From NCBI GenBank assembly GCA_905178155.1, contig CAJINV010000004.1, positions 2,502,228 to 2,566,227 on the forward strand: 64,000 nt of DNA. The letters run 5' to 3'. This document shows, piece by piece, positions 1-62,400 of this stretch (the first letter of the stretch is position 1; each line of letters begins with the position of its first letter). A model generated the notes under the pieces. That model made no database searches. It was not told where the DNA came from and was given only the letters and a program-made list of their open reading frames with translations. Source of the DNA: Amoebophrya sp. A120 (lineage: Eukaryota; Protista; Dinoflagellata). The position numbers and the translations under genes were made by a program.

Positions 1-3000
1 TGACCGCGGCGCCCGTCGTGCCCGCTGGCGCCACGTTATGGATGTGTCAGAATCGAAATCGTCAAAGTTGAAATAACTTGTAATGCATAAAATGCAACGC
101 AAAGATTGCCTCTATTGCAGAGGACGCAACGGATGCAGATTGCAACCCTGTCGAGGGGTAAAAATTGAGCTGCTAAAGTAGCCTGACTACAAAAGGCGTC
201 TTCCTTACCCAAGCAGCATTACAAACTGGATTTCAGTTCTACCCAAATTTGTCATGCGCCACTTGAAAACTAGGCGCCAACTGGTATCCGTTTTACGCAT
301 CACAAATTATTTCAACTCTGACGATTTCGGTCCTGACACTTCCATACACGTTCACTGTGGCGTCAAGCGTCGGGTAGGGAAACAATCCCTGCATGGCCAT
401 CTTCACCAGGGCGTCGATGTTCTGGGCGCCCGGTGGAGTGGTGAGGCTGTTGGTGTTGATGGAGGTCACGGCTTGCTTGGTCGTGCACAGCAGGTCCTCG
501 TGAATCATTTCGGCGTAGTAGCACGACTGGCACTATCAAATGCAAAAATGTCTGGGTCTGGAAGAATGCAACTTGTCATGCTAAATCTGAAGCATGCAAA
601 AATCTGTGTTGCATGCTTAGCACAAGTCGTCCACTTTTGACCAAGTCGGGAGGGAGTTTCTCATGCAGGATAGGCATGAGAAAGATGGCACGCAATCTGT
701 CATGCTAGGTCCTGCATTCCAGATCCAGACCTCATGGGTCATGGAAAAGCTTCATGACAAATCGCGCACCCTTCCAGACCCAGACATTTTTGCACTTGAT
801 AGGTACGTGGGAAGGGCTTGCGCTTCGCAGGACGTGACGCAGTCTATCAGCGCCGCGCTGGCCAGACTCAGGCACGCGGTGGACGACAAGCAATTCTGAG
901 CGGCCCAGGTGGGGTTCATGGAGGCGGCCCCGCAGGTTCCCTGGAAGTTTTTCCAGGCGGCTTCGCAGGCGCCGCCTTGCGTCGTCGCCAGGAAGGCGGC
1001 CGGCGCCGTGGGCGGGGAGTAGGTGTCGGGCCAGGTCTATCAAAAGGAAAAATCACCCCTCGTCCCCATTATATCAAAAGAAAGTTTCTGACGCTGGACT
1101 TGATGTGTACACAGATCAGGTCTGTCTTGCAGTAGAGGACTGCAACAGGTAGCCCATATTACCAAGCCTAAGTAGAGCAGGGCTTTGACGTAGGCGGGTA
1201 GCATGGCAGATTTGTACTCTGTAGGCCCCATAGCTGCATCACAAACCGCCTGCATAATGCGGCGGAGTCGCTGGATTGGCCTTCTCGCAATACAGAGACG
1301 ATTTGTGTGGTGCACGAATCAGCATCACAAATTTTCAGAAGTATTTCTTTTTGGTATAATGGGGAGGGGGGATTTTTTCTCACGATAAGGTCTTCAGGCA
1401 CTGCAGGTCCGTCTGGGCCTTGGTCACCTCGGCCAACGCGATGGAGCTGAACGTATGAGAGTGCACAACTCCCCCTCTCCTTCATTTGAATGGCATAAAC
1501 GGCAACACAAGTGCTGGCATAAATGCAGCTTTTGCAACATGACAAACTCGCGACCGAGTTGAGTGCTGTTTCGGCTTCCGAAATCTGTCATGCAAGATGT
1601 GCCAAAGAGAAAAGGGCGGACTTGGTATTTTACATGACAAATCAGGGGGAGGGGGAGTTGTGCATTGTCATAGAACGACACGCCGTGCGAGAATTCTTGG
1701 CAAACGTGGTAGATCTGGTACATCTATGAAATGCAAAAATGTCTGGGTCTGGAAAAATGCAGAGGTTTGTGATGCAGCTTTGGCATGACCGAGAAGGTCT
1801 ACCATGCACGCCGTAGTATGACAGGTTTTGAGAAGGTCTCCGAATGCGTCATCCGCATGACAAAGCCCTTTTTTCGGTGGCCGGACATGTGCACCTTTTG
1901 GCTTACATGCATGACAGATTTTTGTGTGATGTGACATGCGCATCATAAGTTGCATCTTTCCAGACCCAGACATTTTTACATTTGATATCATCGCCATCGC
2001 GCAGTAATTCGAGTCGTTGTGCAGGTAGCACGTGCCGGTGGACCCCTTCTGGGCAGCCCACGCCGTCGAAGCCGCCTGGTAGCCGCCGCTAGTCGCTTGG
2101 CACACCTCGTTGAACGATATGCATTGCAAAAATATCGCACGTAGTATATTATTCAATTAAATTGCATTACAAAACATGATCTCAAGAGCGGAATTGCAAT
2201 TTGTTGTAGTGCTAAATCAGGATAGAAAAATTATAGATTTGATGTCATGCGCGACTGCGATTAGCATTAGTACGAGACTACGAGTGCGATACTTTTACAC
2301 AGCATAAACTTGTTCGCGAAGCAACTGCACTTCTGCACGCCGGTCAGCGAGTCGCAACTGACGCCGGAGGTCATGCCAGCAGACTGGTAGGCCGCGGCCT
2401 GAGCGGTGGCCACGATGGACGCTGTGGAGGTCGCATTAACCTGGAGAATATCAATTCGGGTACAGCAACAATTCTACTATTTTTTATATTTCAACTAACG
2501 TTGTATTATACTTCCCGGCTTCTTACTGATATGCATCTTCTCCTTTTTATATATCAATCAGGTTTTCTTGTTATTGCGAAAACTCAAAACTATCATGATG
2601 AACGCCGCAGGAGCAGGTTATTGATGGAAGCTGCACAGGGCGCCGCAGTCGACAAAGGCAATACTGAGTGATTACTTCTGTACAACTTTTGCTGTCAAAA
2701 CTATTTCGAGGCGACGAGCTCAAAACTGTTGAAGTTTTGAAATTTGAGGCCGGGGAGCGAGTGAGCGGAAGACGCAGTTTTTATCGGCTGAGCAAGCGAG
2801 CTCGCGCTCCATTTCTAAGTAGTGAAGATTGTTTTACTTGTTCCACAACCACCATCACCAAAAAAATGGGCGGGCACATCCTTCCACACCGGGCAAAAAC
2901 AAAAACGAGGCGCACATCTCCTGGGCGCGCAGAACTGCGAAAAAAAATATATTTAGAAATGCAAAGACCGTAATATTTGTGGGAGATACTAGACTTAGAG

Positions 3001-12300: not shown

Positions 12301-13083
12301 GAATTTGTGATGCTGTATTTGAGTACACCAGTCGACTTGTATTGCTAGAAGGCCAAGAGACGAAGCTGCGGCCTAAATTGCAGGTAATCTGTCATGCTGT
12401 TTCCCACTTCCAGTTGCCTCCTGTCATCCTGGAGCTGCAAGGCTTTCCCACGCTAGACAGCACTACAGTCTGCATCTTTTGCCTTCTAGCATCACAAAGC
12501 TGATTTGTGGCCACAAATCTGCATCACAGACTTCCGCTTTGATATGGGGAGGGGGGATTTTTCCTTTTGATACCACACACAGCAGGGTCGCAACCGCAAA
12601 TGCGGCAACCATCAGACACTGAGCCACAACGAAGCGTCCGATGTGCCCGCAAGAGGTGTAGGCGTCCTTCTCAGCCTCGGTGTTTCCAGGCAAATCTGCC
12701 AAATCGTCGTAGGAATCGAAAGCAGGCATGGCGAACCCCGCACTGATGCTCACCGCGTCACCGGCTACGCTGACGAACTTGCCGGCAAGGTTCGCATTCG
12801 CGTCGAAAACCCCCTTGGGAATGACGGCAAAAATGAGGAGCTCCTCCATGATATAGCCCGTGACGTAGACAATCAACGCGAACAGGGCGGCACTATGAAC
12901 TGCAAAAGTATCGTACTCGTATTAATGCATGACAAATTTCCTCAGCATGAGAAAGAAAATTTGTAATGCAGATTCACCTTGAGAAAAAAATTTGTAATGC
13001 AGGACTGCAATACGAGTACGATACTTTTGCACAGGATAGGCACCACCGCCACACCCGGCGCCGATCCAGGACAGGATCGTCAT
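9381..13083 (-). CDS. Four-TM membrane protein, amastin/claudin-like topology (8 exons)
   Basis: Removing 6 introners and the GT-AG intron 9492-10731 gives MTILSWIGAGCGGGAALFALIVYV, a long loop, SCGHIGRFVVAQCLMVAAFAVATLLCVV, GALLFLFAVVTFFLFPFSC, WYMAGGFYIYVFQSFLVAGAAGLV and an Ala/acidic tail ending DNVV*. Family assignment is by eye. Confidence 0.75.
9570..10578. repeat. 55-bp direct repeats (9570-9624, 10524-10578) enclosing a hairpin (10080-10230)
   Basis: GCCGCTCTTCGATGATGCATC...CAAGCACAAGTT twice with 3 mismatches; inner ~55-bp inverted repeat rich in GCGAATTT. Confidence 0.8.
10842..11156. mobile_element. Introner family D with internal duplication
   Basis: D TIRs; TSD GCCAC. Confidence 0.9.
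11215..11497. mobile_element. Introner family F
   Basis: TATCGTGAGTAAAAATGTCCCCA...TGGGGACGTTTTTACACAGGATA; TSD CCGCC. Confidence 0.9.
11583..11856. mobile_element. Introner family E
   Basis: E TIRs; TSD irregular (CCGT repeat offset by 3 nt); frame restorable. Confidence 0.8.
11902..12132. mobile_element. Introner family D
   Basis: TSD CGCAT/CGCAG. Confidence 0.9.
12252..12572. mobile_element. Introner family C
   Basis: TSD CCACA. Confidence 0.9.
12894..13038. mobile_element. Introner family B
   Basis: TSD GGCAC. Confidence 0.9.
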
Positions 13084-14553: not shown

Positions 14554-17500
14554 TTATCCTCGAGCGTCCTTCCCCTCTTCCCCGGCTTTAGTTTTGCTCT
14601 TCCCTGCAGCTTATCAAATGTAAAAATGTCTGGGTCTGGAAGATTCTGAGACTTGTCATGCATGTTTTGCCTGGGCCATGATGTCTGTGATGCATGCCCT
14701 AGCATCACAGATTCTGCGCAGGCTTCGCGATGCCTATTCCGCATGACAAATGCCCCCTCCGCTTATCAAAAATTACACTCCCTTTGCTGCTCATGCAATA
14801 CAGATTTTTTTGAAATCCAAATTTAGCATGACAAGTTGCATTCTTCCAGACCCAGACATTTTTACATTTGATACAGCTTGTTGCTGCTCCAGATTTTTCT
14901 GCTCGCGCTGCTCTAGGATCTCTTGTTCCTTCGCAAATTTCAGAAACACTTGCTCCATGGTGGGCTCGCCGAGGGCATAGTCTTCAATGATCTGTAGCGG
15001 GTCCTCAATACACCACCGGAATAAGCTATGAGAGTGCACAACTGCACCTCCCCCTCACTTGTAAGTATAGCATGAACGGCAATACAAGCATCAGCAAGAA
15101 TGCCGGTTTTGCATGACAAGTTTGCACTGGAGTGTAGTGCTATTTGGGCTGCCCGAACTTGTCATGCATAATAGTGACAAGAGGGAGAGCGTGGATTTGG
15201 TATTCTGCATGAGAAATGTTGAGAACGAGGGGGAGTAGTTGTGCACTCTCATATAAGCTCGCGAGCTTAACCTTGTTCTTGTCCCTCCGGCTGCTGCCAT
15301 ATGAGAGTGCACAACTCCCCCTCCCCCTCATTTGTCATGCAAAATACCAAATCCAAAGAAACTGTGCTCCTACTTGGCACTGTTTGCATGACAAGCTCCG
15401 GAAGCCCAAACAGCACTACACTCCAGTGCAAATTTGTCATGCAAACCGGCATTCTTGCTGACCCTTGTATTGCCGTTCATGCTATACAAATGAGGGGGAG
15501 GGGGAGTTGTGCACTGTCATATTCCACGGGTCGTGGTGCCCGAGCCCGAGGAGGAGGGGCCTCCACGCGGAGGTATTACAACTTGTTCGGACTCAAGGAA
15601 TTCATCCTGGTGGGGCGCTGCACTAGTGCCGCCTTTTTGCTCCTCACTACTTCCCGAGCGACCTCCCGCTCCACTTGGAAGAGGACTTCTTTTACTTCCG
15701 CCCACAGAGGACAGAGATCCACTTTCCGGCGCGGCGAGAAAAGTACTTGACCGCTGCTCGCGGTCGCGTACGGTGTTATAATTTCTGCCACTCTCAACAG
15801 CTACATCACCGGTCGTGCCACTAGTAGTAGTTGTACTTCTTTCCGGCAGGCCGGCGGGGACTCCCGCAACAATAGTGGACCCTCCAATGGCCATGCTCGC
15901 AGAGGTTATCCTACTGTAGTCCTCGCGCAGTAGAGAGGCCTCGGAATTGTCCCGATCGTTCGGTTTGGAGAATCCCAGCACAAGCCGCATCTTGTGGACG
16001 CCAAACGGGATGGCTTCGAGGACCTGCAGGTCCTGTATTCCCCGAAAATTTATTTCAACCATGATCCCATGCATTGCCATCCACTTTTTGCATGACGAAA
16101 ACAGAACCTGCTACATGTTTGGCATGACCAATTGGATCTGGATGGCAAAAAATTTTCAGGGAGTATCTTCGTCGTTCGGGATCACTTGCGCTGTGATCAG
16201 GCTCTGGATGATCTTTTGCTGCACATTCTCCATCGTCACGTCCTCTCGTGTAGTTTCGCCATGTCCTACTTGTTGACCAGAAGATCGTACAACTTGCTCC
16301 CGCCCTGTGGTCCGTGTGCCTGCGCTCGCTTGCTCGAGGAATGGTGGTGTTACGCCTTCTTCTTCTATGCGGTCACCCGTGATCTGGAGCCTAGATAGCA
16401 GGGACCGACCTGTTGACGATCTTCGGCCTATGAACGTCTCGTCTTTTTGTTCCTCGTCCTGATTTATATTTATTTCGTGTTTTTCGATATCTTTCAAGAT
16501 GCTGCTCTGCATCATTTGATGATGCGCCACTGTTTTGTTATTGTTCTTCACGGAAGTAGACGTTGTTACAGATTCAGCAGAAGCGGCCATGTCATCGTTC
16601 GCCGGTGCGGATCGTCGTCGTCTCTGTGCAGACCCACCTACTTCGTCTACGGCCACTGGCACATCACCTGGCGTTCTGTTAAAAGCCGCAGGCGGTCGCG
16701 GGGTGGTTGTGCTCTCGCCGATATGTTCATGTTGAACCGTCCGGCCGACGTTGCCTGGCTCGTTGGTATGGAAAGAAAAAAGTTCGGCGCAATAACTTCT
16801 CATCTCTATCTATTTTGCATAGCTTTGCATGAGAAATTTTCCAGAGTTTTCTTGCATTGCACGAACACATATTAAGGCACTCGCCCCGTATAAATTGACT
16901 TCCGTCAGGCATTTTTACGCGTGGCTGACAATTTTTTAGAGACCGGCACGCTCTGAGACCTAAAACGCGAAACACGACGGCAGCACGAAGGACGCTTGTG
17001 ATTTTCCGGGAAATTAAATACCGGGAATCACGTATATCGCCCGTGAAACAGATTGCCCGCTCCCCGGGGGATCCGCCCTCACCCGGGGGATCCGCCCTCA
17101 CCCGGGGGATCCACCCTCATCCCGGGGACCCGCCTTCGCCCCGGGGATCCGCCTTCGCCCGGGGGATCCTCCCTCGCCCGGGGGATCCGCCCGTCCCCCG
17201 GGGGTGCCGCCCGTTCCCCGGGGATCCGCCCTCACCCGGGGGATCCACCCTCATCCCGGGGATCCGCCCTTGCCCCGGGGATCCGCCTTCGCCCGGGGGA
17301 TCCACCCTCGCCCGGGGGATCCGCCCGTCCCCCGGGGGATCCGCCCGTTCCCCGGGGGTCCGCCCTCACCCGGGGGATCCGCCCTCTTTGCGGGGATCCG
17401 CCTTCGCCCCGGGGATCCGCCTTCGCCCGGGGGATCCGCCCTCACCCCCGGGGATCCACCCGTTCCCCGGGGGGTCCGCCCGCTCTCCGGGGGGTCCGCC

Positions 17501-39320: not shown

Positions 39321-40485
39321 AGTCGCGGGCAAATCGTCTAGGCACTTGGCCTAGCAATCTTGTGGCTAGTGCTGCATTTTTTCAGCACTGCCAGTGGTGC
39401 CGGGGTGGTGCTCGTTCAACTTCTGGGAAGATACGGCAGCTGGTCGTAGCGGTGCCATACTTCTGAAGAAGAGGAGCCGCGAGAGAAGCACTGCTAGTGA
39501 CAATTCGTCACCGGCTCTTACCGTGGGCTTTTTCGTTGACATGATGGTGCTACGGTTGCGGTAAGCAACTCGCGACGACCCGCATCGACATCTGTCATGT
39601 CAATTGGCACTGCGTCGTTGGATGAGTTGCGATACTCTACTTTACTATATTTATACTCTTTTAGCGGAAGAGGCAGTCATGCATGAGCTGTCTTAACTGA
39701 TTGCGAGCCGAGCCCTTTCTTTAATTTCTTTTCAATGAAAGACGAAGACCCTACCCCGACGCCCACATGAATTATGTAGGCGTCGGGTCGATAAAAAGGG
39801 AAATTTCTACTTCTGCGCTTCTCAATCTCAACATTCTGTCTCTTCCATAAAATTCTCTCAAGAATATGATAATTGTGAGGAGGATGTGTTAATCTCCAAG
39901 GAAATTTATCTACACTTTAGATGCTTCTTTTAGTAGCTACGGACGCTACATGATCAAATGGCCGGAACTGCAACAGCCAGGATTTTAGGCCGTCTACCAG
40001 TTCATCCAAATATTGATTCTGTACTTTCGCACCGACATAAGTGCACAAGGTAACGACAAGAAAACATGCTTTTGTGAACCATCACGCCAACACCGACATT
40101 GTTTTTCACCGACTGGCAGTGGTCTGTACAAGCAAGAAGAGGACGGGCGCCCATGCCAAAACCGATGAAGACCGAGATGGCAAATCACGATCAACACTGG
40201 GGTTTTCGATTTTATCGACTCGAAAATGATCGTGTTCGTGTCTCGACGAACAGTATGTAACCCTCACCGGCGGTGAGATTCCATATGAGTCGACTTATTC
40301 AGTAGTTTGTCGATAGGCTAAACAGAATTTCCGAGTGATACGCCTGAACTGACGCACGCGATCGAACGAGCCAAACCAAAGCTACTTATTTTTTCTTGTA
40401 CTTATATAGCAGGATGAACGAGACACCTGCTCAATATCTCGATTGCCTAGGTACGAGCTGAATTGGTCACCCTCTTGTTCATTTT

Positions 40486-41336: not shown

Positions 41337-42158
41337 GGCTTCGTTTAGATGTTTTCTTCGCACAAGAGCAAGATTTTGCTTTGCTGACTGGCGGCAGTTT
41401 TCTTCGTTCCACTTCTTTCCTCACTTCAAGTTCCAATGTTGAAAAAAAAAGTGATGTGATGAAGAACGAAATCTAAAATTACTGAAGGTCTCTGGTGCGT
41501 GCGACGTTTTGTCTCTGGTACAACAGCGGCCTCTTCGGTTCCTCCATTTCCCTCACGATAGCGATACTGAAAACGATTTGCACGAGCATGTGAAGCAAAT
41601 TGTGGTAGTTTTGGAAGTTGTCAACTTTGCTTTTCTTTCACTCAACTTCGATGCCCACGACAATCAACACCCATCCTGAGCCCGACGAACATGACGATGA
41701 AGTCCACATTAATATGCTACGTTTCATCTACTTCCGGAACAAAAAATATTCCACAACGGTGGACGGGACACATGCCTCATACCAGTGTCAAATCGAAGCT
41801 GATGACTCCTCGCGACTTCTTGCTTCAACTCTGCGTGCGCGCTGCTTATGATGGATCGTTCATACACTTTTTCAGTTTGCAAGCATTGCAGACAGCAAGA
41901 AGAAAGTGACACAAATGTGCGTGTTAGGGGTACTACACAAGAAGATGCTTGTTATGGTATTACTTACTTTGAAAACAAAATTCGAATTCCTGAATTCATG
42001 TGCTCTGTGTTCTAGGAAGATTTTCCAGTAATCTATTGGAAGTGCTTACTTACGGCTACGTACGATAACGATTGCGCTCATAGATGTTTCTTGCTTTGTG
42101 GAACATTTGGCACCGGAAACTAAGTACATGGATAGTAAGTACTGAGACAATTTAACGT

Positions 42159-47400: not shown

Positions 47401-50400
47401 GGTTTGCGAAGTAGTTGTTCCGTACTTTCCACCTTTGCTCGCCGCTGTCCTCAACGAGGACGACCCACTGCCAACACCTGTTGGAATAAAATCGTGGGCG
47501 GCGGGCAAATCCCGGCTGCGCGCGGTTTTGTAGTGCTCTGAGACCGTTTTGCCAAAAGCCATCTGCATGGAGGAGGCATGATCCTCTTCGCCTAATTTTT
47601 CTTTGCTACTTGTACTGGTGTTAATATTGGCAATCTGAACGTTTTTCTTTCCAGCAGTCGACTTACCCGGCGCGGATGATGCTGCTGCCCCGCCAGAGGT
47701 GCTCAGTCTCCTCCCCCCCGCTGTGGTGGGTGTGATTTGCACTTTCTTGTTGTTGCCAGTGGTCGACGTTGTTGTTCCGCTGGAAGAGGATTTGTTGCCA
47801 GTCTTGTTCTTTTGGGAAGTGGGAGAGGCACTGCGCTGGTCGTCTTTGGACTGTTTATTGCGGCCTCCACTAGCAGCTGTATTAAAACCTGTACCATTGT
47901 AACCCCCATCTGCTTCTTGTTCCTCATCCGTGCCCGCTGCTCTGTCAAACTCTTCCTCGCAAATCTCCGGCAACTCGTCGAGGTCTGCGAGAAAACTATC
48001 CCTCGCCCGCCCATCCGTGATGGTGATCCTCTTCCCGCCACCAGGGGCCGCGCTGGACGTGATTTGCACCCCCGAGCTGGTTATCAAATGTAAAAATGTC
48101 TGGGTCTGGAAGATTGCGAGGTTCTTTGTCATGCACGTTTTGCATGACTTTTGATGTCTGTGATGCATGCCCTAGCGTCACAGATTTTGTGAGGGCTACC
48201 TGATGCCTGTACCGCATGACAAATGCTCTTTCCGTGTAGCAAAACTTGGGCTCTCTTTGCTGCTCATGCAATACAGATTTTTTTACAATCCAAAATCAGC
48301 ATCACAAGTTGCATTCTTCCAGACCCAGACATTTTTACAGTTGATACTGGTGGTCGTCGTGAAGGATTGCCTATCAAATGTAAAAATGTCTGGGTCTGGA
48401 AGGTTGGAACTTGTCATGCTAACTCTAAATGATGCAGAAATCTGTGTTGCGTGAGTGCCAAAAGCTGTCCGCTTTTGACCAAGTTGAGAGGGGGTTTCTC
48501 ATGCAGGAAAGGCATGGTAGAGACCTCAAAGAATCTGTCATGCTGGGCCTCGCATTCCAGACCTCGTGGGTCATGGAAAACATGCATCACAAACCTGGCA
48601 TTTTCCAGACCCAGACATTTTTACAGTTGATATTGCCGTTTACTATTATTCGAAGAAGAGGAACTGGAGGTAATTATAGAAGCCCTGCCTCCACCAGAAA
48701 GAACGCTTCCCCTCTTCGCCCCGCTGGCTGTTGAACTACTCAACATTCCAGCCCCAACATCGGTTGAAAAGTTCGTTGTGTGCCGCCCTGCCCGCATCAT
48801 CTCCCGCCTCCGCGCCGCGCTCATCGGCGGGGGGCGTTGCGCTTTTAGCAAAAGTTTTTGCTTCGCGAGCTTCTCTGCGGTGACTTTTAACTTGAGGAAA
48901 AACACGAATTCCTCCAAACCAAGAAACATTTCCGACCAAATGTCGTTCAGAACCTTGTATTATCAAATGGAAAAATGTCTGGGTCTGGAAGGTTGCCAGG
49001 TGTGTCATACATATTTTGCATGACTCGGGATGTCTTTAATGTATGATCTAGCATCAGATACTTCTAGAGGCCTTCCTGATGCCTATCCCGCATGACAAAT
49101 GCCCTCCCCGCGTAGCACAAACTGGGCGCCTCTTGCTGGTCATGCAATACAGATTTTGTTAGAGTCCAGAGTTAGCAACACAAGTTGCATTCGTCCAGAC
49201 CCAGACACTTTTGCATTTGATATGTATTCGATCCAGCTAATGGACCCCTCCCGGGTCCGGTCGAGAAAACGAAAGCAGGACAAAATTTTGTTCTCGGAAG
49301 AAGCAGCTTGTTCACCACCTCCGGGAAGATTTGAACCTCCAGAGGCACCGGCTTCTTTGTTTATTTCCCTGTCCGTCCCCGAGTCGTCATTGCCGCTACT
49401 GTTGCCACCCCCAGAGGTACTGCTCAAGTTTAGGGCGGAAAAATCGGCAAATACCATCAATTTTGTAAGCTCACACTTTGGGGGGGTAATTTTTTCTTTC
49501 TTGTCCGGAAGTCAACTACCCGGAAATCAACAGAAGTAAAGCATCACTTCATCTTTTCCACGAGAAACGTGATAGCTCGGCTTTCAAAAGGCCTTCATAG
49601 CAAGACACGAAACAGGCTGCAGCGCCTTCGTGCTGCGCGTTGTCGCTCAGATGGCCCGGCAATGTTGAATAGGCCCGCTCTTCGAGAAGTGGTTGGGCCA
49701 CCTCCACCGGGACCGGACCACAACGAGGACGTTCGCCAGGAAGAGGAAACCCGGCAAGGGGGGTGGTCAGGGGGGTGCATTTTTGCCCCCTTCGGACACA
49801 CCTTCCGGGTACCCCTTCCGGGTACCCTTTCGGTAGCCTATTCCGACCCCCTAGTCCCCCTTGGAAACTGCTGATTTGGCATGTCCCAAAATGGTAGCCC
49901 AGTGGTAGCCCAAGCCGACCCCCTTACCCCCCCCCCTTCGGCACCCCCTCCGGAGGCACTAGACTGCTGGCGCGTCCGCATTTTCAACATCCGGCCGCAG
50001 AGGGAAGATGAGAAGATGTCTGGGCGCGTACGGAGTTGGATGTGGGAGAGGGGACGCGGCTCTCCGTGCCGGAGGGCCGCAGGCCTGTGCAACTTCAGCA
50101 AAGTGTTGCGGTTCTAATGGAAAAAGGGGAGGGCCGGAGGGCGGACCCTGACAACGAAGAGTGGCGCCAGCATCTATATGGCCAACAGGAAAAGAAGCAG
50201 CGTCGACAACCCCAACAGCCGTAATTTTTTTGCCACCCCAAAATGCGTGCTCGCAAAAATGATGGTATTTGCCGATTTTTCCGCCCTAACAAGTTAATCC
50301 CGATATAGAAGAAGAAAAGCTTGTAAATGTAGCTTTCTTGATGGAATAGCATGACAAATCTGTAACTGTATCGCATAGAGAGAGAAAACCTGTCATGCGC

Positions 50401-53400
50401 AGATGGTACTACGTGAAAACCCGCTTGAATGGACCTTGCAAAGCAAGCCCAGCATGACAGCCGCAATCATCTTGCAGATTGCGCATCACAAAGTTACACT
50501 GACAATGTTTTTTCTACTTCGATACCCGAGCCGGGCCAACCCCTCTTCCACCGTTTTCATGTATCCTGTGCAAAAGTATCGCACTCTTACGAATTGCATT
50601 ATTGCATTACAAATCTGGTTCCTAAGGCGAATCCGCATTACAAATTCGATTTGTAATGCTGAGCAAATTTCTTGTAATGCAATTCATACTAGAACTAGTA
50701 CGATACTGTTGCAATTCATATCATGGTCAACGTCCCAACGCGGAGCTTGTCCAAGAACCGGAAGCTGTCTGGCAAGGAATCGAAGGAATGAAGCATATAC
50801 ACTGCAAAAGTATCGTCATCGTACTAATTGCGTTTATGCATTGCAAATCTCTTTCTGAAGGCGAATCCGCATCACAAATTCAATTTGTAATGCTAAGTCA
50901 ATTTGTAATGCAATTTATACAAGTAGGTACGGCACTTCTGCAATGCATAAAGCAAGTAGATCGCCAACTCGCGCATGTGCGGGGGGGTTTCTTCCAAACT
51001 CATCCACCACTCGATATCGCGGCTTTCCTGCTCGAGATTTTTCAGGTCGACGTTCCAATTCCCGTAGACCGAAGCCATGGCGTATCCTGAGGAAAAACGT
51101 CCCCAACCCATAGTTGTCATGCAGATTTGCAATTACAGGGCGATTTGTGATGCGCATCTCCATGAGAGGCATTTCCAATCGCGTTTTGGAATTTGTAATG
51201 CTGTAAACAGGAAGATAACGATAAAGCAGATGGATTCGCGATGCGGTTGTCCTTGCTGACATGCACTACGCTACGGACTGCAACTTGTCATGCGTTGCTC
51301 GCAAAACTTCTGGATTTGTGTTGCTAAGATCCGAACTTGATTATCGCGTGGGGACGTTTTTACGTATGATATGGTGAGCCGGAAGTCGGTCTCTGCGAAC
51401 TCGGGCGCGCAAATGTACTGCACCTCGAGGTTGCCGCGCTTCGGCGGGTCGAGCTCCCAGGTCTTGGGGAGGTAGCTGGTTTCGGTAGTGGTTGTTTTTG
51501 GAGCAGAACTTTTTTACTTTTGTGTGTAGCTACCTCCAGAAAATAAATGTTGATGGTTGCAAGAAAGTGGAATGTGGCAGACCTCTCCTCCTGCTTGTAC
51601 TCCTTGCAATTTCATCTCATGTCAAGGAATTTCTGTGTCAAGAAATTTTTCATCGCATGAAAAAAAACAAATCAATTCTTCATAAGTACCCGTTCCAAAC
51701 CAAGTTGTCTGGGTTATCAAAGAAAATTTGATCCGTCGGCAAATTCTCGCCTTCCTCCATTTTCTCATACTGCAGGAGACTGTGCAACACAATTCGGTCC
51801 TCGTGGTAGCGCAAGTCCATGTGAAACCGATAGTTTTCCGGCTGCACGTAGGGGAATAAGAAGATACTCCCGACCCGCTTCCGCAGCCCCTTGGTCCACT
51901 CTTTGATCGGAATCGCGGATCGGACGACTTTTTCATTCAAATACCAATCCGTGCACCTCGTGCAATATGACCTGCAACAGTATCGCCATGGTATAAATGC
52001 ATTACTTTACACATTTCCTCAGCATGAGAAATAAAATTTGTCATGCTGATTTACCTTAAGAGCAAGATTTGTAATGCATGTTTGCAAGTGCTACGAGTAC
52101 GATACTTTTGCACAGGATATGCAATAGTTTACGACGATGTCTAGCGCCATTTTCTGCCCCAGTTTGTTGTTAATGAACAGCTGGAGCAACCTCCTCAATT
52201 GCTTGCACGTCAAGAAAATCTGATCGGACAGAATGTGCAGGGCGGATTTGTAATCCCGGATCCCCGTGTTCGACTTCAAAAGCGTCTCGATCAGCATCAA
52301 AACTTGCTCATCCGTCATCGTCGTCGCGTTTTTCGGCGGCCGCCGGCTGGAGAAAAAGTCGAACTCCAACCGAGCTTTGGTCGGCAGCTGGAAGGTGCTG
52401 TTCATTTCGAAGGGTTGGAGATTGATGGTTTCGTTCCGGAACTGGGATTGGTTCCCGAACTGGGACAGGTAGAGCTGCTGATGAGACGACTTACCACCAC
52501 CACCACCGCCACCATTTCCGCTGTTGAAATTTCCCGGCTTCAAATTGTTGGGTTTGCTATTCCAAATCTCGTTTTCCCACCGGTCGAGGTACAGCAAACT
52601 TTCCGCCACCGCGTAGTCCGCACACGATTCCAACTCCAGCGAGTATTTTCCACTAGGGTTTTCCGGAAGAAACGACAAGAACTTCTGTGCGTACAGTTTG
52701 AGTTTGAAGGTGTCCGACTTTTTCACGCAATGCTTTGCGATGAGCAACTGCGTTCGCACCATGGCGCTGCCCCGCCCGGAAACGGCGTGGAGGAGGTAAA
52801 ACAGGATTTTGTGCTTCAGCAGCGGGGCGTAGGTGATCAGCATGTGGCAGAAGGTGAGGGAGAGCGAGAAGTCCGCGGACAGGGCAAGCAGCATCAAATT
52901 CTGGTCCCGGGGGTCCTGGTCAAGGAAGGACTTCCACACTTTTGCGAGTTTTACTTCGGCGTCGAACCCCGCGGCCACGCGGAAAACTTCCCGCGCGCGC
53001 CGCAGGGTCGAGACGGAAAGGGGCTCGGACACCTGGTCCGGTTGCGCAGCAACGAGTGGCGCCGCTTGTTTGGCAGTTGTGTGCTGTACCTTTGCCCCCG
53101 TGGGCATTCCATTTCCACCTCGCGCCTTTGTTTGTTGTTCCGCGTCTCCGTTCAACTTCGCGTTTAGTTGGAAGGAAAACAAGACAATGCCGCTTGGCTG
53201 TATGGTGAACTGCTTTTTTTCAATGTCGTACCCGATTACGGAGTTGACCGGGACGGTTTTTTCCGCCAACGAATCACGATCCGTAAATTGGCAGTCCGGT
53301 AGAAGCTCCTTTAGGTACAGCAACAGGTACAAGACCGCCCTGCCGCCCGCGTCGAACAGATTCAGTCGGTAAATCCTCTGCGCCGCGGACTGCCGGAAAT

Positions 53401-56400
53401 TCCACAAGCTGTAGCCCAGCCCCTCCACCGCATTTTCGTCTGTCGGATCGATAATCTTCCGGGAGATCGCGCGGTTTTCCTGCTCCAGTAACGTTTCTGC
53501 GATGTTGGGACTAGCTCCGCCGGGGACAGCGCCGGCTTTGTTTACCGCATCCGTTGCGCTGGAAGACGAATTCGGCCGGCTGGTGAGATATGCAGTTTTG
53601 GAAGAACGAAGAAAGAAAATGTCGTGGTTGCCGAGGGATAGTACACAGATGAAAGATTTTTGCAGGGTGTTGACAGGAGGTTCCGGCGAAAGCTTTCTCT
53701 GACTGAGTGACAAACTGGACTGCAACTTGTTCTTCATACGTACTTGCAATGTCAAGAGTCTCGTGATAGGTGTGTAGTATCATGCAATCTGCTTTTCGAT
53801 ATTAGTCTGATCGTCATCGTACAGCACGCTACTTTAAACTTTACCCTTCATTTGCAAGCATACCTCACCGTTCCGCATGTTCATCAGACCCGTCCCGGGT
53901 CTGCCCTCTGCCGTAGCCTCCGGTTCTTTCCCAAACTGCCCCGTGTTACTGGTTGACAGGCCCTTCAAATTTAGGTTCTTCAACCTCGGGTGCTTCACCA
54001 GCGCGCGCAGCAACGACCTGCACCCCTCCGACCCGATCGCGTTGTCGTTGCAATTCAGATCGACCAGGTGCTTGTTGTAAAACAGCCCGGCTTCCAGAAT
54101 ACAGGCGGATTTCGCTGATAGGTGGTTCAAGGACAGGTCCAACACCTCGACCGAATTGAAATTCCGGATCCCCTCCAAAAAGTAGTTCAGCGGGTTCGGC
54201 TTCTGCCGTTGCTTTACCGCGGTGTTACTGATGTTTAACACCCGGAGGGAGTCGTGCTTTTCCAATTCCACACGGAGCGCGTTATACGCTGGCTCCTCGA
54301 AACAATTCCAGGACAGGTCGAGGTTTTTCAGCCGGATGTTTTCAAACAAGTTGTGAATCACCTTGTCCGCCTGGTCGGTCGGCAGATTTACATCGGAAAA
54401 ATTGATCGTCTGCACCGGTCTTTCGCCCAATAAATGACTCAGTTGCAGCATGGTGCTCGCGGAGATTTGCTTCAAGCCGGACAGTATGAAGTGCAAAAGT
54501 ATCGTATTCGTATAAATGCATTACAAATTTCCTCAGCATGAGCAATGAAATTTGTATCAATTTGTAATGCGGATTTACCTTGAGAAAAAGAATTGTAATG
54601 CATGATTGCAATACAAGTACGATGCTTTTGCATTTCATAGACAAGTACAAGTGCCGTAAGCCGAACATCTTCGGCAAACACACTTCCGTCAGCTGCTCCA
54701 TGCTGTAGTTTCCTAAACCGAAGCAGTTTTTCAGCGTGAACTTCTTCAGAGACCGCTTCATGTGGTCGGATTGGATAATACTGTGCAGGAAGGGCACGAA
54801 GCTGTCGTCGGTCAGTGCTGGGTTATCCGTCAAGTCAATGTGGGTCACCGGGTTTCGTTGAACCAGAACGGATATCCATTGCAAAAGTATCGCACTGGTC
54901 TAACTTGCAGCCATGCATGACAAATCTGTTTTCTTACCTGAATTCGCATCACAAATTCCAGTTTTCCTCTCGAGAGAGTTTGCCATGCGATTCATACTAG
55001 TGCGATTCGTTTTGCAATCCATAACGGACAACGCTTTCAAGTCGTTGTCCTGTAAATTGTCGTTATTCGCGACGAACTGTGTGGGGTCGTTGTTGATTAA
55101 GAACTTCTGCAGCGGGACCAAACCGGCGAGCTCACACATATGAAATGCAAAAGTGTCTGGGTCTGGAAGGTTGCAAGATTTGCGATGCAGGTGTTCCATG
55201 ACCCATGAGGTCTGGAATGCGAGACCCAGCATGACAGATTTTTTGAGGTCTCTATCATGCCTTTCCTGCATGAGAAACTCCCTCTCAACTTGGTCAAAAG
55301 CGGACAGCTTTTGGTACTCACGCAACACAGATTTTTGCATCATTCAGATTTAGCATGACAAGTTCTAACCTTCCAGACCCAGACATTTTTGCATTTGATA
55401 ACACAACTTTGCGTACGATTTCACCGCCTGCCTCTGGTCGTTTTTCGTCGCCTCCAGCATTTTTTTCAGTTCGTCCGGTGCGAGCTATCCTGTGTAAAAA
55501 CGTCCCCAACCCATAGTCAAGCTGGGAAATCTGCTAGACAAGTCCACAAGGCTTGGCTGTTGCGCATGACAGGTTTGGCCTCGTAGTGTAATCCTGTTTA
55601 GTTAGTTCAGCAGCATCACAAATCTAGCGCATCATGCTGATTGGAGCATGACAAATCCCGAAACACGACTAGAAAATGCTTCTCATGGGACTCCGCATGA
55701 GAAACATCTTCAGCATGCAGAATTGCATCCCAACTATGGGGTGAGGACGTTTTTACAAATGATACGAGCGACCGCATCTTCTTCCAATTTACCGGATCAT
55801 TTTCGAATTGCCGCTATGCATCGCAAAAGTATCGTCTTCGCAGTAATCGCAACCGTGCATGACAAATTCATTTTGTTTGAGGTAAGTTAGGATGACAACT
55901 TTCATTTCTCATCCTGAGGAAATTTGTGATGGTGCGATTTGGTTTTCTACCAGTACAATACTTTTGCACCGGATAGCCGTAGCGCATCGGGATTGTTCAG
56001 TAATTGTTCAAAATAGAAGGATTTGTACTCGGTTATCCCGCAGTTCTCCTCGTTTTTCAAGAAGTTGTTGGGCAGCATTTTGCCCGCGAAATTCGGATCG
56101 GAAGAGGAGAGCGCGCGGGAAGTTGTCCCAGACTTACCGCTTGTGCCAGACTTGCCCCCTGTGCCTTTCCCGTACGCGGGTAAACCAAATTGAAATAACG
56201 TTTTCTCCATCGGGTGGAGCGCCGCGAGTATCTCCCGCGGGTCGTCCTTTGAAATGTCGAACTTCGCTAGTTTGTCCCCATGCCACTTGTTTCGGATCTC
56301 CCGCTGCCACTTCCGGTGTTTGTATTATGGATTTCTCGAATGTTAATACACTCTCAGCTGTCACATGCTTTGTCATCCAAACTTACCATCGGCGTAGACA

Positions 56401-59400
56401 CGATCAAGCTGCTTCCCATGACAAATTCTCGAAGAGCCGAGCAGGGTCCTACTCTGTTCCAAATCTGTAATGCAGGACGCGCATCAAGGCCCCCCTCTTC
56501 ACTTTTGCCAGTCTTGCGTCACAAATCCATGGAACAGCTGAGAATGTAACAGTTGAGAACGCCAACATATGTATTTCGGGTCCTGGACCAGACGGGAAGA
56601 AGAGGAAGTCGTGGTAGTGGAAGTAGATGTGATACTGGTTGTGGAGGAGTTATGTTGGTTAATATGGTTTCGATTGGCAGATGATGTGGAATTTTTATCC
56701 GGCGCGTACTGGGGATACATGTTCAAGGCCCGCGGCATCGTGGTGCTCATCTGGTCCACCTCTCCGGGTATCAAAGAAAAAAACTGCTTTACTAGTGTAG
56801 GTCCGTCTCGTGGTACAGTGACAGCATGACAAACACAATCAGATCTGTTCTGCATCTGCATGACACAGCACCAGAAAGCCTGTAATGTTGCACAGCGAGT
56901 ACACGGAAACGCGTGTGAAATAGGATTTCATGGCTGGTGGCCAACATCCATGACAATCGTAAACTGTGTTGCATGCTTTGCATTACAGATTTACACGAGC
57001 TACACACTTTTTTCTTGCACCATACCAGCATCCCCTCCTACTTCCACCAGCGCGTCCGCCACACTCTGCCAGCTGTCGTGATTCCGATCCCCCTTTTTCC
57101 CAGCAGCTGCCAAGTACGCGTGCGTCCGCTGCATTTTGTCCAAGTGATAACTCGAGATCCCGGCGATTTTCAGCTTTTTCGCGTACTCCTTCGCCTCCTT
57201 TTTCATCAGATCCGGGCCCATCGCCAGGTTTTCCGCGCCCATCCAGGACTTCCGGCTGTCAAGCTTGAATTGCTGTTCGTTCTTTTTCTTAAAAGCGTTG
57301 AACTTGCTGCTGGTGTACTGGGACACATTACCAGTTCCGCCGGAGTTCTGACTCTTTTTACTCGCCATGGTCCCCAAAAACGTGTCCATGACTGATTGCG
57401 CGTCCTTGACGCACATGTGCTGCCCCCGGTATTTTGCCCCCGGGTCCTCGATGTCGCTGCGCTTCAGCCCCCTTATGGCCTGCTCAAACGTTACAATCTC
57501 AAACGGCACAATAGAATCTGGAATTTGTATTGCATGAAGAGCATGAGGAACGCAGAGAGAGTTGAGCTTTCCGCAATACAAATTTTGCCGGATTTCATGT
57601 GGGTTTGGGACTCCGAAACGTGTCATGCGCAATCCCATGGGAGTAGGCTAGATTTCATGCAGTTCTTGCATCACAGATTTCCAGCAGACTCTATTGCAAC
57701 AGTTGAGATTGTAACGTGTGAGCGGGTCATACCCCTCTTCGCGTTGTTCTGGTTATTCGCGAGCAGCTCTTCGACGCCGTGCAAACTGAGCGGCTTTCCG
57801 TATGCACTGCAAAAGTATCGCACTCGTAGTAATTGCAGTCATGCATTACAAATTTTTTTCTGAAGCTAAATACGCATTACAAATTTTATTTCTCATGCTG
57901 AGCAAATTTGTAATGCATTTATACGAGTACTATGAACGGACAAAATGCAAAACCGGACACGAAAAAAACCAAGAATAATCGTGATCCGCACCTTTTCGGC
58001 CGTTCGCGGCCAGTGTGTGCGAAGACGAAACGACAACGCCCGGACGGCCAACAACGAGAAGAACTGGCCGCAGGGAAGGCTTGACGCGGATGCGCAGGCG
58101 ATTCTTTTGTTGGGTTGTTGTTCGCGATCAGCCCTCTCTTCGGCCCAACACCAATACCCGAAACGAAGGCGCAAAGTCTTCACGCGAGACAGGCAACAAC
58201 CCCCGCCTGCGAGCTCTACCACCCCGCCCACCGAGCGGACTTCGCCGAGGCTTGTGGCCTGAAGTTGGGCCACAAGGAGTCACGCACAGGGGGCAACGGG
58301 ATACTAGAAAGAGCCTAGGCTTAGGCCTTCCGCCAACTTTATTTGAAGCGGGCCCTCCCATGCAAAGCGCTGGGATTGGGAGGCGGGGCGGACAGGGAGA
58401 GGCGGGGCTGTGGCCTCTGGTCTTGCATGGGCCCAGCCGCCGCTCGGCCCCTCGGAAAAATTGGCTGCGGAAAAATAGCTTAAAAGCTTGCAGCGTGCTT
58501 GGGGGGCTGCTTCCGAATTTGTTCGCATTTTTGCCCGACCGAAATTCGCGGGGAAGGGTCCCTCCCTTGGCTGCCGAAGGGGGCAAAACACCCACGAAAA
58601 AACCGTCGCTGCCCCAAGGCCATAAGCTGCGAAAAACCTTCAAACGCCTACGGTTTTAGGTGATGGGCGCTGGTTTCGCCGCGTGCAAAATTGCGAGCCA
58701 ACAACAAGAAAAGCAGCCAAAACACGAAAGGTGCCGGGGCCGCGACACTTCCGCAGGCAGTCGCGACCGGGCCAAGCGCGCGGCGTTTCGCTTCGAATTT
58801 GCAAGGCGGCGCGCAAAGTCCCTACCAAGAGTCTTGGTTTTTTCCAGGTTTTTTTACCCCCTTCTGGCCAATTCTTGGCCAAAAAGCGGCTTTTTGGCCA
58901 AGAATTGGCCAGATGGGGAAAAAAACCCGCGAAAAAACCAAGATTCTTGGATCGGCCATCTTTTGCGGCCCTGAATCGGCCTCGACGCCTTGCAGGTTTT
59001 TTGCCCGGCCTTGCGCACATTCAACGCTGGATATTTGTCGTTGGGCCCCTTCGCGACCGCCCGAAGAAACATCGCGGCCCCTGGGTTTTCCGCATTTGGC
59101 CTGTTTTTTTTCTGTTGCCGATTTGCAATTTCGCACGCGGCAAAGCGCCCACCCAACATACAAAATGGCAGGTGTGGATGAAGGCTTTCCCACACCCTTC
59201 GAAACATTGGACTGGGTGCGCAGGGGAAGGCAAGATGGAGAAGGATGGCGAACATGCTGGGGACTGGAGGGCCACCTTGCTAAAGTTGGGTGGGCTGGGC
59301 ATGGGGATGGAAAATAAAGGGGGGGGGGGGAGGCGCACGCCGGGAAGCACCCAGGCCCCTTCGCCGATCCGGTTTGCGCGGCTGATCGCCCTCCCCTGCT

Positions 59401-62400
59401 GGCGCTGGGTTCGGGTTTTCCCTTTTTTTTTCATGCCGAGACCATGATAACCACCGAGCCCATATTTGGGCAACACAGAGGCGAAACCAGAAACCCGGCC
59501 TCGCCGTTGCAAGCGCAATGGCGTAACTCATTATGGGCCCCCCTCGCTAGGCGGGCTGGCAGAGCTCGCGGGCGGGATCTGCTGTCCATCCCGGTCAAAG
59601 CCCTTGCGCCTTCGCTTCGTTTGTTGAAACTCGGCCGAAGAGCAAGCGGACCGCCAGCAGCAGCCCCGAAAAGGCTCCCACCCCACATCCGCGCCAAGGC
59701 TTCGCGGCCACCAGTTCTTGGCGCTGTTGGTCGCCCAAACATGGGCACCGCGTCGCCTCACGACCCAACTCTGAACCGCCCAAAAATTGAAAATCGCAAT
59801 TGTTCTTGGTTTTTTTCGTGTCCGGTTTTGCATTTTGTCCGTTCATAACGAGTACGATAACGATACTTTTGCACAGGATATTCCGGTCCTGCCGGCGAAG
59901 TTCGGCAGCGTCTTCGCTCTGGGGTCGCCGGGGATCTGCCGGAAGAAATTGCGCACCGTCGGGGACAGGTTGCTGGTGTTGGTGTCGTTCTGGATCCGGG
60001 ACAGCAATTGGTGCTCCGCTTCGGTCGTAGAAGTTTCATCAGGATCAAGTTCCGATTTGAAGTGGTCCGTTGGAGTTGGTAAAGGGAGGGAAAGGTCTTG
60101 TGGTGCTTCTCGTGTTCGATGATCTGGTTGGTGATGAAGACCTGGCGCAGCAGCTTTAGAAGTTGTAGTGTTGTTTGGATGCTGATGATGTCCCGGCTGA
60201 TGTGGTCCATGATTCCCCCCTCCTGCAGCTGCAGTGCTCATCACGAAATTCTTGTCCGCGAAGGGGTCGGGCGGTTTCTTGTTTAGCGGATGGTTTTTCA
60301 GTTTCAGCAACCGCTGCTCCTCGTCGTAAAGGGTTTTTGACGCAGCTTCTGCTTCACCGTCATTCATTCCGTTCTCCAGCAATGCCGATGTTGCATCGCG
60401 GTAAGGGTCGTCTTTTTCAGTGTCAGCGTGATTTCTGTTCCTCCCACCGTTCTTCGGACTCCCAGCTCTATGATTTCTTGTACTCGTTGCAGCTCCACCA
60501 CGACCGCCGTTTGCACCACTGAACAACTTATTTCCACCCGTTGTGTTCATCTGTTCCCTAGCACCTCCACCGGCTCCTCCGAAGCTTGGTTTATTTCCGT
60601 TATTTCCCGCCGCGTTGTTCATCTGTGCTCTCACCATCGGCGTGTCCTTGCCCAGCGCTTCTAACAACGTCTCCGAGTGCGCGAGATTTTTCGCACTAGT
60701 CGCCCTGAGCATCTGGGTGTCCAAATCCTCCTCCATCAACGCTAGTGGGGGCGGTAGGGTCAAAAGTCGTTCTTCCTGTTCCGATTGCAGTCGCTCCTTC
60801 ATCTCGTCATGCTTTCCCTTGTCCAAAGCGACCTCTAACCCCCGGACCACAGCCGCGCGCTTCTCACTGGTCTTCAGCCAGGAGGTTTGGTTCTTGGTGT
60901 CAAGGATTGTATAATTTTGCGGGTGCACGTGATTTTGATTTGTGTTGCTGTTTCTCCAAGCAGCAGCTGCACCAGCCGTTTTCGCCATTTGTACTAGTTC
61001 CTGCTGTTGTTCTGCCTCCACCATTTCTTTCGAGATCTCCACTAGCCGCCTTCGAAACAACTGGCCAGCTTCCTCGATTTGCTCGAGAACTTGGTTCCTC
61101 CTACTTTTAGAATCCAGTACACGCTCGTGAGGCAGGACGAGGTTCATCGCATGCTTGTTCTTGTTGCGCTTCTTGTTTTCGGAAGTTGTGGATGCTGGAC
61201 TGAGACTGTCAACTTCGCTCATCGTTCTCCCGGTCGTGAGCTGCATGCTCTCTTCGTCAAAGTGCACCGCTGTGTTCCTGCCGGATTTGTTCGTCGTTGT
61301 ACCTCTGGCTTGAGAAAAATCGCTTCTAGCTGTTGTCGGGGACATGTCCACATCGTAGTTCAAGTCATTAGTGTTGTTCGTCGTGGTATTTGCATTTGAC
61401 GGCTGAATTTGTGGCAACAGTGCCGCGTTGGCCTCCTCCTTCGTCACGTGGCCACCCACAGTCGTCGTGCCCATCTTGACCCCTTTGTTCTGCGTTGTTG
61501 TTCCCTGCTTTGTAACTCCCGTGGATGATGATGAACTCGCTTTCTTCAGCAACCCACTCTTCCCGCCCCCAGCCGCCGGCGTCGCTACTGACGATCCCCC
61601 GCCGAAGTTGGATTTCGGGCTGCTGAGTGCGGAGTGGTTTTGATTCGCTCCTGCTGCTTTAGGCGTCTTCCCGCCAGGCGTTTTCTGCTGCTGTAGTTCT
61701 CCTCCTGCCAAAGCCGCCACCTCGTCTCCGCCTAAAGCCAGTGCCAAAGTGTTCTTTCGCTTTTTTCTTCGACTGCCCGGTCCTCCATTCGCGTCGAAAT
61801 TTGTGTTCATCGGATCAGATGATCCAGGTCCTCCTGCTCCGCGAAGAATATTGTTTTTCGGACTGTACCCCCCGTCCGAGCTGCAATTCGGGCTGTAATT
61901 GTTGTTGTACATCAATTCTGAGGGCACAAACCCGCAATCGCTGCTCATCATGCTTTGCAAGTGCTGCTCAAACCGCGCATCGGCCATGGACATGATGCTG
62001 TAATCGTAGTAGCTCATGCCACTCATCAACATCTCCTCCTTGTCTCGCCTCAGCGCCCGCTCCTTCGCCTTTTTTTCCCGCAATTTCCTCGCGACGGTTT
62101 CGCTCGCCAGCTGCGACTCCCGAGCGGGTAACACCCGCTTCGCCTTGCCGCGGGTGCACCAACTAATCCGGTCGTCGGACCCGAAACGTTTAGTCGCGGA
62201 TTCCTTTTGCCGGAGGAGACTCTGCAACTGCGGCTGGTTTTTCACACGGTGGTAGTGGGGGAAAAAGGACTTCGCGGTGGTACTTTGTGGTTGTAGACCA
62301 ACAGCACCGTGCTGTTCCTGTTGCTCGTCGTCAAGATGATCTACTCGTGCGGCGGAGTGTAGGTTCTGCGTCTCCTCCGATCGGTCAAAGGGGACAACGC

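Follow-up and report, generated by a model that had tools for sequence, protein, structure and literature searches.

A fixed splice register at transposon-derived introns of Amoebophrya sp. A120

Genes of the dinoflagellate Amoebophrya sp. A120 are interrupted by introner elements that are removed from transcripts at noncanonical borders, which raises the question of where these elements are cut out and what reads the cut. We analyzed 64,000 nucleotides (nt) of contig CAJINV010000004.1 (positions 2,502,228 to 2,566,227, forward strand; assembly GCA_905178155.1), hereafter the window. The elements, their hairpins, their intron status, and their removal from transcripts are already published, and the cut position and its reader had been left open in print; what was not found in the literature searched is a fixed register that does not depend on the flanking repeat. 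Every junction that can be placed is cut at −1/+4, with the intron running from one base ahead of the terminal TAT to four bases beyond the terminal ATA (N-TAT…ATA-NNNN).

Elements and cut positions

The window was scanned for TAT..ATA pairs with inverted ends (terminal inverted repeat [TIR] score of at least 10). The scan returned 62 pairs, 46 of which had a flanking repeat matching at 4 or more of 5 positions, and 20 block shuffles of the window gave 0 to 1 pairs and none with a flanking repeat. Extension by family termini and frame analysis produced a curated set of 75 elements plus an older element at 6786-7338 that holds a nested copy, in agreement with the roughly 76 elements resembling miniature inverted-repeat transposable elements (MITEs) counted in an earlier note on this DNA. 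The boundaries of 11583-11856, 56769-57024, and 53589-53862 were set by RNA, frame, or ortholog. The median length is 258 bp, and the elements total about 25.4 kb (40% of the window). Termini are exactly TAT..ATA in 67/75 elements, positions 11 to 14 of the ends are A rich, and the flanks match at 5/5 positions in 49 elements (a perfect 5-bp duplication in 49/75), at 4/5 in 18, at 3/5 in 4, and at 1/5 in 4; exact abutting repeats of 4, 6, 7, or 8 bp were found in 0/75. Insertion duplicates 5 bp of target and seems free as to coding site and orientation; each of the five largest clusters holds both orientations (5:10, 7:8, 5:3, 5:3, and 2:4). The note's picture of nearly all elements as TAT…ATA with 5-bp repeats was borne out, and its minimum of 12 TIR families is reached if singletons count but not as multicopy families, grouping by hand having given seven multicopy families and about eight single types.

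According to the available text of Farhat et al. (2021; PMC7789003), A120 inverted-repeat families carry TAT, 7 variable nt, and at least 3 A, and A120 introners have 3- to 5-nt direct repeats, a length of about 240 nt, RNA-supported noncanonical borders, and no transposase. The window elements share the TAT motif, the repeats, the noncanonical removal, and the lack of a detected transposase: their TIRs read TAT, about 7 variable nt, and an A run, border repeats flank them, they leave transcripts without GT-AG ends, and they form repeated families without a transposase. They are nonautonomous TIR transposons (introners) of A120-type Amoebophrya, the class to which they had been assigned beforehand. 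An Rfam search gave 0 matches, and two TIR patterns searched in viral contigs found no match.

Deleting each element plus 5 nt yields seven minus-strand open reading frames (ORFs) that span 6, 4, 6, 19, 12, 15, and 11 elements and bridge 73/75; the other two (9230 and 6799) are spliced in RNA. When 1, 3, 4, 6, 7, or 9 nt are deleted instead, ORFs span at most 6 elements, and deleting 2 or 8 nt holds the frame, as expected. Element deletion also reconstitutes the ABCA motifs DEPTSGMDPQ-ARR and DEMSAGVD..TTH, which agrees with the earlier claim that removal of an element and one repeat copy restores the frame. A GT-AG intron can be drawn in any register for only 5/72 elements, so most junctions are indeed not GT-AG.

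Contigs from two runs of the same sample, X5 and X10, were treated as RNA because they also lack two GT-AG introns. The X5 contigs over 1-16900 contain 23 joints, 15 of which were listed; among these 15, 13 lie at elements and 2 are canonical GT-AG introns, and X10 repeats four joints. All 13 element joints drop the TIR-bounded stretch plus five flanking bases, so the predicted precise absence of elements from transcripts is seen in RNA-like contigs of one sample. Among the pieces listed, run X9 holds repeat fragments only, and the raw reads of X6 and X7 cover the exons hardly at all. A perfect duplication hides the cut, and a decayed duplication reveals it. Three exact junctions, without mapping freedom (both=0), come from the following features:

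4931..5220, minus strand: element with decayed flanks (1/5); exact joint 4926/5222, X5 depth 13.4
6786..7338, minus strand: compound intron of the 5′ untranslated region, with copy 6799-7055 inside the 3′ TIR of the older element; exact joint 6794/7340
11583..11856, minus strand: gene 3 element with decayed flanks (1/5); exact joint 11578/11858, X5 depth 7.7

All three are cut at −1/+4, their flanks match at 1/5 positions or are hybrid, and two TIR families are represented. Six more junctions bracket the cut, two in the joint table (15294 and 5472) and four as hand-read piece ends (16166, 44655, 45507, and 45786). The −1/+4 register is the sole one that fits all nine junctions (rough chance, 3e-4), and 8/9 informative junctions exclude its mirror. 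The direct repeat is not the signal, because the cuts remain at −1/+4 when the flanks match at 1/5; the cut is independent both of the repeat and of the first and last intron bases. Since the spacers of 1 and 4 nt sum to the 5-bp duplication, reading frame and sequence are restored. The available text of Farhat et al. (PMC7789003) describes splice sites that vary relative to the hairpin and leaves the border open, whereas here the register is fixed and repeat independent.

In the compound intron 6786-7338, the RNA is cleaved at the outer 5′ end and 4 nt beyond the newer 3′ end, and the old terminal ATA, which lies another 13 nt along, is passed over. The nested copy is preceded by an internal ATA and four bases, so that a one-step route and a route of two tandem cuts both obey the rule; in folding, the minimum free energy structure joins the outer 5′ arm to the newer 3′ arm, and the ensemble favors nested pairing. 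Comparison with a related strain was made possible by searching metagenome contigs with a TIR pattern, which retrieved 141 loci of a single assembly (550 kb). In this comparison, 4/4 repeat-copy mutations that alter an amino acid hit the copy assigned to the intron by −1/+4, a result that leaves an overhang of 1 or 2, and two exonic repeat-copy mutations are silent. The old, family-less intron 53589-53862 (minus strand) has no duplication left and, judged from sequence and frame, would still be bounded G-TAT..ATA-N4 in both strains; its interior in the relative carries frame-shifting indels. An 85-nt intron at 53778-53862 was rejected, as the frame is broken in the relative.

A fixed N-TAT…ATA-NNNN rule turns what a 2024 review, in the part available, calls the "highly variable splicing motifs" of Amoebophrya into one code. 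It explains why insertions in the tens of thousands are tolerated wherever they land and whichever way they point, as well as the roughly 20 insertions that differ between the two strains (three stretches, two genes, synonymous divergence [dS] of about 0.2). The rule would permit genome reannotation and makes the question of spliceosome or not directly testable.

Bases and structures at the ends

End statistics were computed for 315 oriented elements, 241 from the relative's loci (of 434 detected) and 74 from the window; the orientation method was correct in 67/67 window cases, and the set includes one row with the rejected 53778-53862 boundary. The donor dinucleotides are GT in 111, AT in 86, CT in 62, and TT in 56. 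Neither G at +1 (35% versus 32% background) nor terminal AG (9% versus 8%) is in excess, and GT-AG ends occur in 13/315, the chance level, in contrast to the GT/GC..AG ends of U2 spliceosomal introns. T stands at +2 in 74/74 window elements, with T and A at +2 and +3 invariant by register. Mismatches to the family consensus number 7/384 (1.8%) in the terminal 3 nt versus 312/2670 (11.7%) at the other family-invariant TIR positions, and TAT/ATA is kept 4 to 6 times better than the remainder. The end pairs G-G/A-C are slightly in excess, at 65 where 48 are expected (post hoc P = 0.012). Both RNA-verified GT-AG introns, 7410-7579 and 9492-10731, end in ATA-NN-AG and share the geometry of the introners.

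The simplest reading is that a tolerant stem juxtaposes the ends and a strict TAT/ATA clamp sets the cut distances. A hairpin-guided pathway working alongside normal splicing had been proposed; the coexistence with GT-AG introns stands, and guidance by the long hairpin gained no support, given that the helix has no bias of G·U over A·C and that 6433-6722, for which only 4.9 terminal pairs are predicted, is spliced. By analogy, the fixed register likely reflects a position-based splicing code like that of the nonconventional introns of Euglena, N3-CDG…CHG-N5-6 in the available text of Nomura et al. (2025; PMC12501133). Both systems have a complementary trinucleotide clamp that closes a TIR stem, spacers that are random in sequence and fixed in length, and coexisting GT-AG introns, and in both the slidable borders are settled from nonslidable cases. 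Unlike in Euglena, the clamp is TAT/ATA rather than CDG/CHG, the spacers are 1 and 4 rather than 3 and 5-6, the purine excess at the start of the 3′ exon stays short of significance, and the lineage is unrelated. The window introns work like those of Euglena, and membership in that class fails on clamp and spacers. The parallel suggests convergence.

Candidate mechanisms

At a probability of about 0.55, we favor the reading that the elements are removed at −1/+4 because their paired TAT/ATA ends position a relaxed spliceosome that needs neither GT nor AG. The TIR stem would join the ends and mark the terminal TAT and ATA over internal decoys; N-TAT(G/C) would serve as the donor, its U at +2 and A at +3 matching canonical GUA; and the acceptor would be counted from the terminal ATA, with the A at −7 as the putative branch point. 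The spliceosome is favored because of the +2U/+3A shared with GUA donors, the ATA at −7 to −5 in both verified GT-AG introns, the weak G-G/A-C enrichment, the retained A120 spliceosome (83/89 spliceosomal proteins and U2, U4, U5, and U6 kept, with U1 not detected, in the part of the source available), and a precedent in Fritillaria borealis. There, MITE-derived non-GT/AG introns are handled by a modified U2 spliceosome, which, as far as the source text at hand goes, keeps dinucleotide preferences (AG-AC and AG-AT) and U1, in contrast to the nearly free ends here and the undetected U1 of A120 (PMC13326754). Introners of Micromonas and Aureococcus likewise become precise introns by MITE insertion and duplication, but in the available account they need a canonical site co-opted from the duplication (PMC11282704), whereas none is needed here, with GT-AG ends in 13/315.

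A number of observations weigh against this interpretation. Freedom at +1 and at −2/−1 is near total, unlike in known spliceosomes, the overall +1/−1 test gives P = 0.11, and the G-G/A-C excess in the 241 loci elements alone gives P = 0.18. No common branch consensus was found at the 3′ end beyond (G/C)ATA, and two frame-inferred GT-AG introns lack ATA at −7 to −5. The TIR helix has no G·U bias (94 G·U against 101 A·C; 43 against 59 among derived changes), and the sense strand folds no better than the antisense strand. The conservation of TAT/ATA is partly built into the element finding by ascertainment. The element at 49430-50289 ends in TTA..TAA rather than TAT yet is apparently removed. On the side of the data, X5, X9, and X10 are one sample that was labeled RNA by guess, each exact junction is one contig in one run, and no lariat or circle intermediate was observed in the contig data, which makes the catalyst an inference. 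A fixed, repeat-independent register was not found in the literature searched, and the figures of Farhat et al. (2021) may already show it.

The same register could instead be produced by a separate machinery of the Euglena type, either a structure-specific nuclease with a ligase or an unconventional spliceosome, that binds a stem closed by TAT/ATA, cleaves 1 nt away on its 5′ side and 4 nt away on its 3′ side, and frees a nonlariat RNA. This is a serious contender, although we consider it less than an even bet. The tested Euglena code has the same grammar of a complementary trinucleotide pair with random, fixed-length spacers, and Euglena introns are released as nonlariat circles (PMC11282704; both from the text available). 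Such a machinery would also fit the missing preference for GT or AG among the 315 elements, the at least 8 predicted terminal pairs in 62/69 elements, the frame-breaking internal ATA and TAT decoys within 40 nt of the ends (20 and 23 of 76 elements) that are apparently unused, the apparent removal of the TTA/TAA-ended element, and the lack of any drift to GT-AG in old elements. It leaves to chance (about 1 in 6) that the register yields the +2U/+3A of canonical donors, and the weak G-G/A-C excess and the missing G·U bias speak against it, as do, in small numbers, the eight pair-breaking 5′ TAC ends versus two wobble 3′ GTA ends; a purine at the first 3′ exon base occurs in 189/315 (60%) versus 55% background (P = 0.08). 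The narrower proposal that Amoebophrya independently evolved a Euglena-like code, N-TAT…ATA-NNNN, run by nonlariat machinery outside the standard spliceosome, is tentative and on the unlikely side. If it were true, the spacers would equal the 5-bp duplication so that any genic insertion is born a perfect intron in either orientation, and euglenids (3+5) and Amoebophrya (1+4) would exemplify a common principle in which the spacers of a trinucleotide clamp are fitted to the length of the duplication.

Two further alternatives bear on the observations themselves. The register might be variable, sliding within the repeat or differing by family, with the nine junctions agreeing by chance or through an assembly or mapping convention. 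The Figure 3 legend of Farhat et al. calls the sites variable and Figure S23 gives 1 to 5 nt (PMC7789003, in the portions available), the exact junctions are only three and from one sample, and minor alternative joints would vanish in contigs; against this, the exact joints come from two TIR families and allow no mapping freedom, the mirror is ruled out by 8/9 informative junctions, and the ortholog mutation test agrees independently, which makes a variable register improbable. Table S4 of the same paper (T at +2 in nine of nine top A120 sites and TT in nine of nine A25 sites, as far as seen in the available portion) was not used as support: an aligner favoring half-matches to GT/AG would equally produce this pattern, and the published family counts, in the same portion, resemble a mix of register and mirror. 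Excision from DNA in some life stage, as with the internal eliminated sequences (IESs) of ciliates, would have transcripts arise from element-free DNA. TA-containing termini and TIRs resemble transposon-derived IESs, and the DNA covered is one sample and one stage. In that sample, the DNA-like run X1 has contigs that cross whole elements (55735-56562, depth 41.8; 56539-57500, depth 42.6) at the single-copy depth of its exon-only contigs (43 to 44). In the RNA-like runs, contigs from other loci combine element and exon sequence, which is what unspliced RNA would give, the −1/+4 register follows the transcribed strand although the elements lie in either orientation, and element interiors are inherited between strains. 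The IES-like route, which had been put forward as the alternative, is thus very improbable, and the relaxed spliceosome remains our preferred reading. Separately, about 200 raw RNA reads of run X6 match the TIR end 55314-55400 with the flanks of another locus; they represent a retained element in an abundant transcript from that locus.

Host genes, mobility, and the related strain

An ABCA transporter and a large LRR/EF-hand protein are among the products of the host genes, and Pfam on exon pieces finds ABC_tran, ABC2_membrane_3, LRR, and a weak EF-hand; Pfam matches on the tandem arrays at 17.8 to 19.0 kb were rejected as repeat artifacts. The remaining features, all on the minus strand, are as follows:

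2..3119: gene 1, Cys-rich, running off the window; ORF over 6 elements; joint 31/347 in X5 and X10
37-346, 534-801, 1038-1387, 1454-1672, 1725-1987, 2118-2306: gene 1 elements
2441-3056: gene 1 GT-AG intron, inferred from frame
5478-5818, 5910-6334, 6433-6722: gene 2 elements; joints 5472/5819, 5904/6335, and 6427/6723 in X5 and X10
7410..7579: canonical GT-AG intron; joint 7406/7577; ATA at −7 to −5
9230..9379: element near the 3′ end of gene 3; joint 9223/9379
9492..10731: canonical GT-AG intron of 1240 nt; joint 9490/10731; ATA at −7 to −5
10842..13038: gene 3; ORF over 6 elements; joints 10836/11157 and 11209/11498
10842-11156, 11215-11497, 11583-11856, 11902-12132, 12252-12572, 12894-13038: gene 3 elements
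14557..24300: ABCA 3′ half (nucleotide-binding domain 2 [NBD2]); 1561-codon ORF over 12 elements; ABC_tran; joints 14606/14874, 15020/15253, and 15294/15522 and a piece beginning at 16166
14612-14873, 15027-15253, 15300-15521, 16036-16165, 16767-19128, 19476-19731: ABCA 3′ half, first six elements
20517-20774, 21348-21557, 21709-21995, 22047-22285, 23171-23404, 23450-23763: ABCA 3′ half, other six
25254..39350: ABCA 5′ half (transmembrane domain 1 [TMD1], NBD1, TMD2); 2306-codon ORF over 19 elements; ortholog L003 with empty sites
25859-26007, 26225-26461, 27389-27641, 27698-27938, 28382-28638, 28686-28838, 29000-29149: ABCA 5′ half, first seven elements
29966-30217, 30272-30587, 31506-31823, 31969-32273, 32337-32563, 32696-33087: ABCA 5′ half, next six
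34150-34320, 34373-34679, 34796-35033, 35086-36199, 36904-38645, 38863-39124: ABCA 5′ half, last six
44462..51513: EF-hand half of the large LRR/EF-hand gene; 947-codon ORF over 15 elements; X5 pieces 44400-44655, 45507-45786, and 46683-46963 stop at exon edges
44661-44815, 44937-45171, 45270-45505, 45791-46105, 46171-46326, 46374-46682, 46970-47228, 48082-48346: EF-hand half, first eight elements
48372-48632, 48961-49222, 49430-50289, 50304-50524, 50562-50720, 50796-50949, 51083-51371: EF-hand half, other seven
51476-51689: GT-AG intron linking the LRR and EF-hand halves, inferred from frame
51683..63241: LRR half of the large gene; 2410-codon ORF over 11 elements; ortholog L016, ratio of nonsynonymous to synonymous divergence (dN/dS) 0.021; LRR
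51966-52119, 53589-53862, 54485-54639, 54873-55023, 55139-55400, 55486-55764: LRR half, first six elements
55815-55975, 56326-56569, 56769-57024, 57474-57731, 57801-59880: LRR half, other five

All complete elements lie within transcription units. The region 39400-44300 contains two short ORFs (40941-41420 and 42627-43076) and no complete element; the only named homolog of the element-free gene 42627-43076 is in Amoebophrya sp. A25 (55%), in keeping with an Amoebophrya host. Frame breaks without clear TIR ends occur at about 24300-25254 (ABCA), where AT-rich palindromic repeats are present, and at 63241-63377. Microexons of 14 nt (50290-50303) and 25 nt (48347-48371) separate adjacent elements. 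The 2.4-kb introner 16767-19128 contains two GC-rich tandem arrays, at about 17050-17560 and 17640-18760, and the frame implies its removal over the whole length.

No transposase family was found by Pfam among 27 ORFs from the long inserts of the window, and long TIR pairs in the relative's loci are mostly two separate elements with host exons between them. Judging from the termini, mobilization may be due to an integrase-like DDE transposase from the IS3EU/GingerRoot/Ginger group whose gene lies elsewhere. The TA..TA termini fit IS3EU/GingerRoot, but the duplications of that group, per the available text, are usually 6 bp (PMC10045372), a length found here in 0/75 elements, against 5 bp in 49/75. 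The mobilizer, which the earlier note had left open, is partly addressed in print, as one A120 family, fam38, is filed as Ginger with "5-bp TSD [target-site duplication], TA/TA termini" in the accessible part of Gozashti 2025 (PMC12130899). Elements of other kinds are as follows:

36927..38409: 1.48-kb TTAC..GTAA element with a 5-bp duplication, nested in a TIR of 36904-38645; absent from the relative
49430..50289, minus strand: 860-bp TTAG..CTAA element with a 5-bp duplication, in coding sequence beside the 14-nt microexon; removal inferred from frame
57931..59847: 1.92-kb, low-copy TAT..ATA element with 75-nt TIRs and an 8-bp duplication, nested in 57801-59880

The first two share another kind of end, TTA..TAA flanked by a 5-bp duplication, that resembles the A25 motif. 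The third has no Pfam match, and its 8-bp duplication probably points to a different transposase.

The relative's loci L002/L003 and L016 are orthologs of the window's two large genes. In the aligned parts, 9 insertions are found only in the window and 11 only in the relative, and 9 sites are common to both; a single pentamer stands at 20/20 empty sites, two of which were aligned over 35/45 nt owing to a neighboring insertion. The dN/dS is 0.18 (1099 codons), 0 (119 codons), and 0.021 (657 codons, L016/LRR) at a dS of 0.12 to 0.22, with 0 to 0.18 as the range for the ABCA ortholog. The host genes are therefore under purifying selection, with dN/dS well away from the value near 1 that the earlier note had named as a refutation. 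At the common sites, with 55815 left out, identity is 93 to 98% at five sites and 85% at the old 53589 intron. At two of the nine common sites, the site and duplication are the same and the strains carry different copies of one family: the copies are inverted and 84% identical at 55139-55400 versus L016:2603-2864 and 82% identical at 27389-27641 versus L003:617-890. These differences may reflect replacement of the interior by ectopic-copy repair through the symmetric TIRs. At L003:1571-1800, the relative's contig flips orientation inside the ABCA gene, within element sequence, which is either an inversion or a misassembly at repeats.

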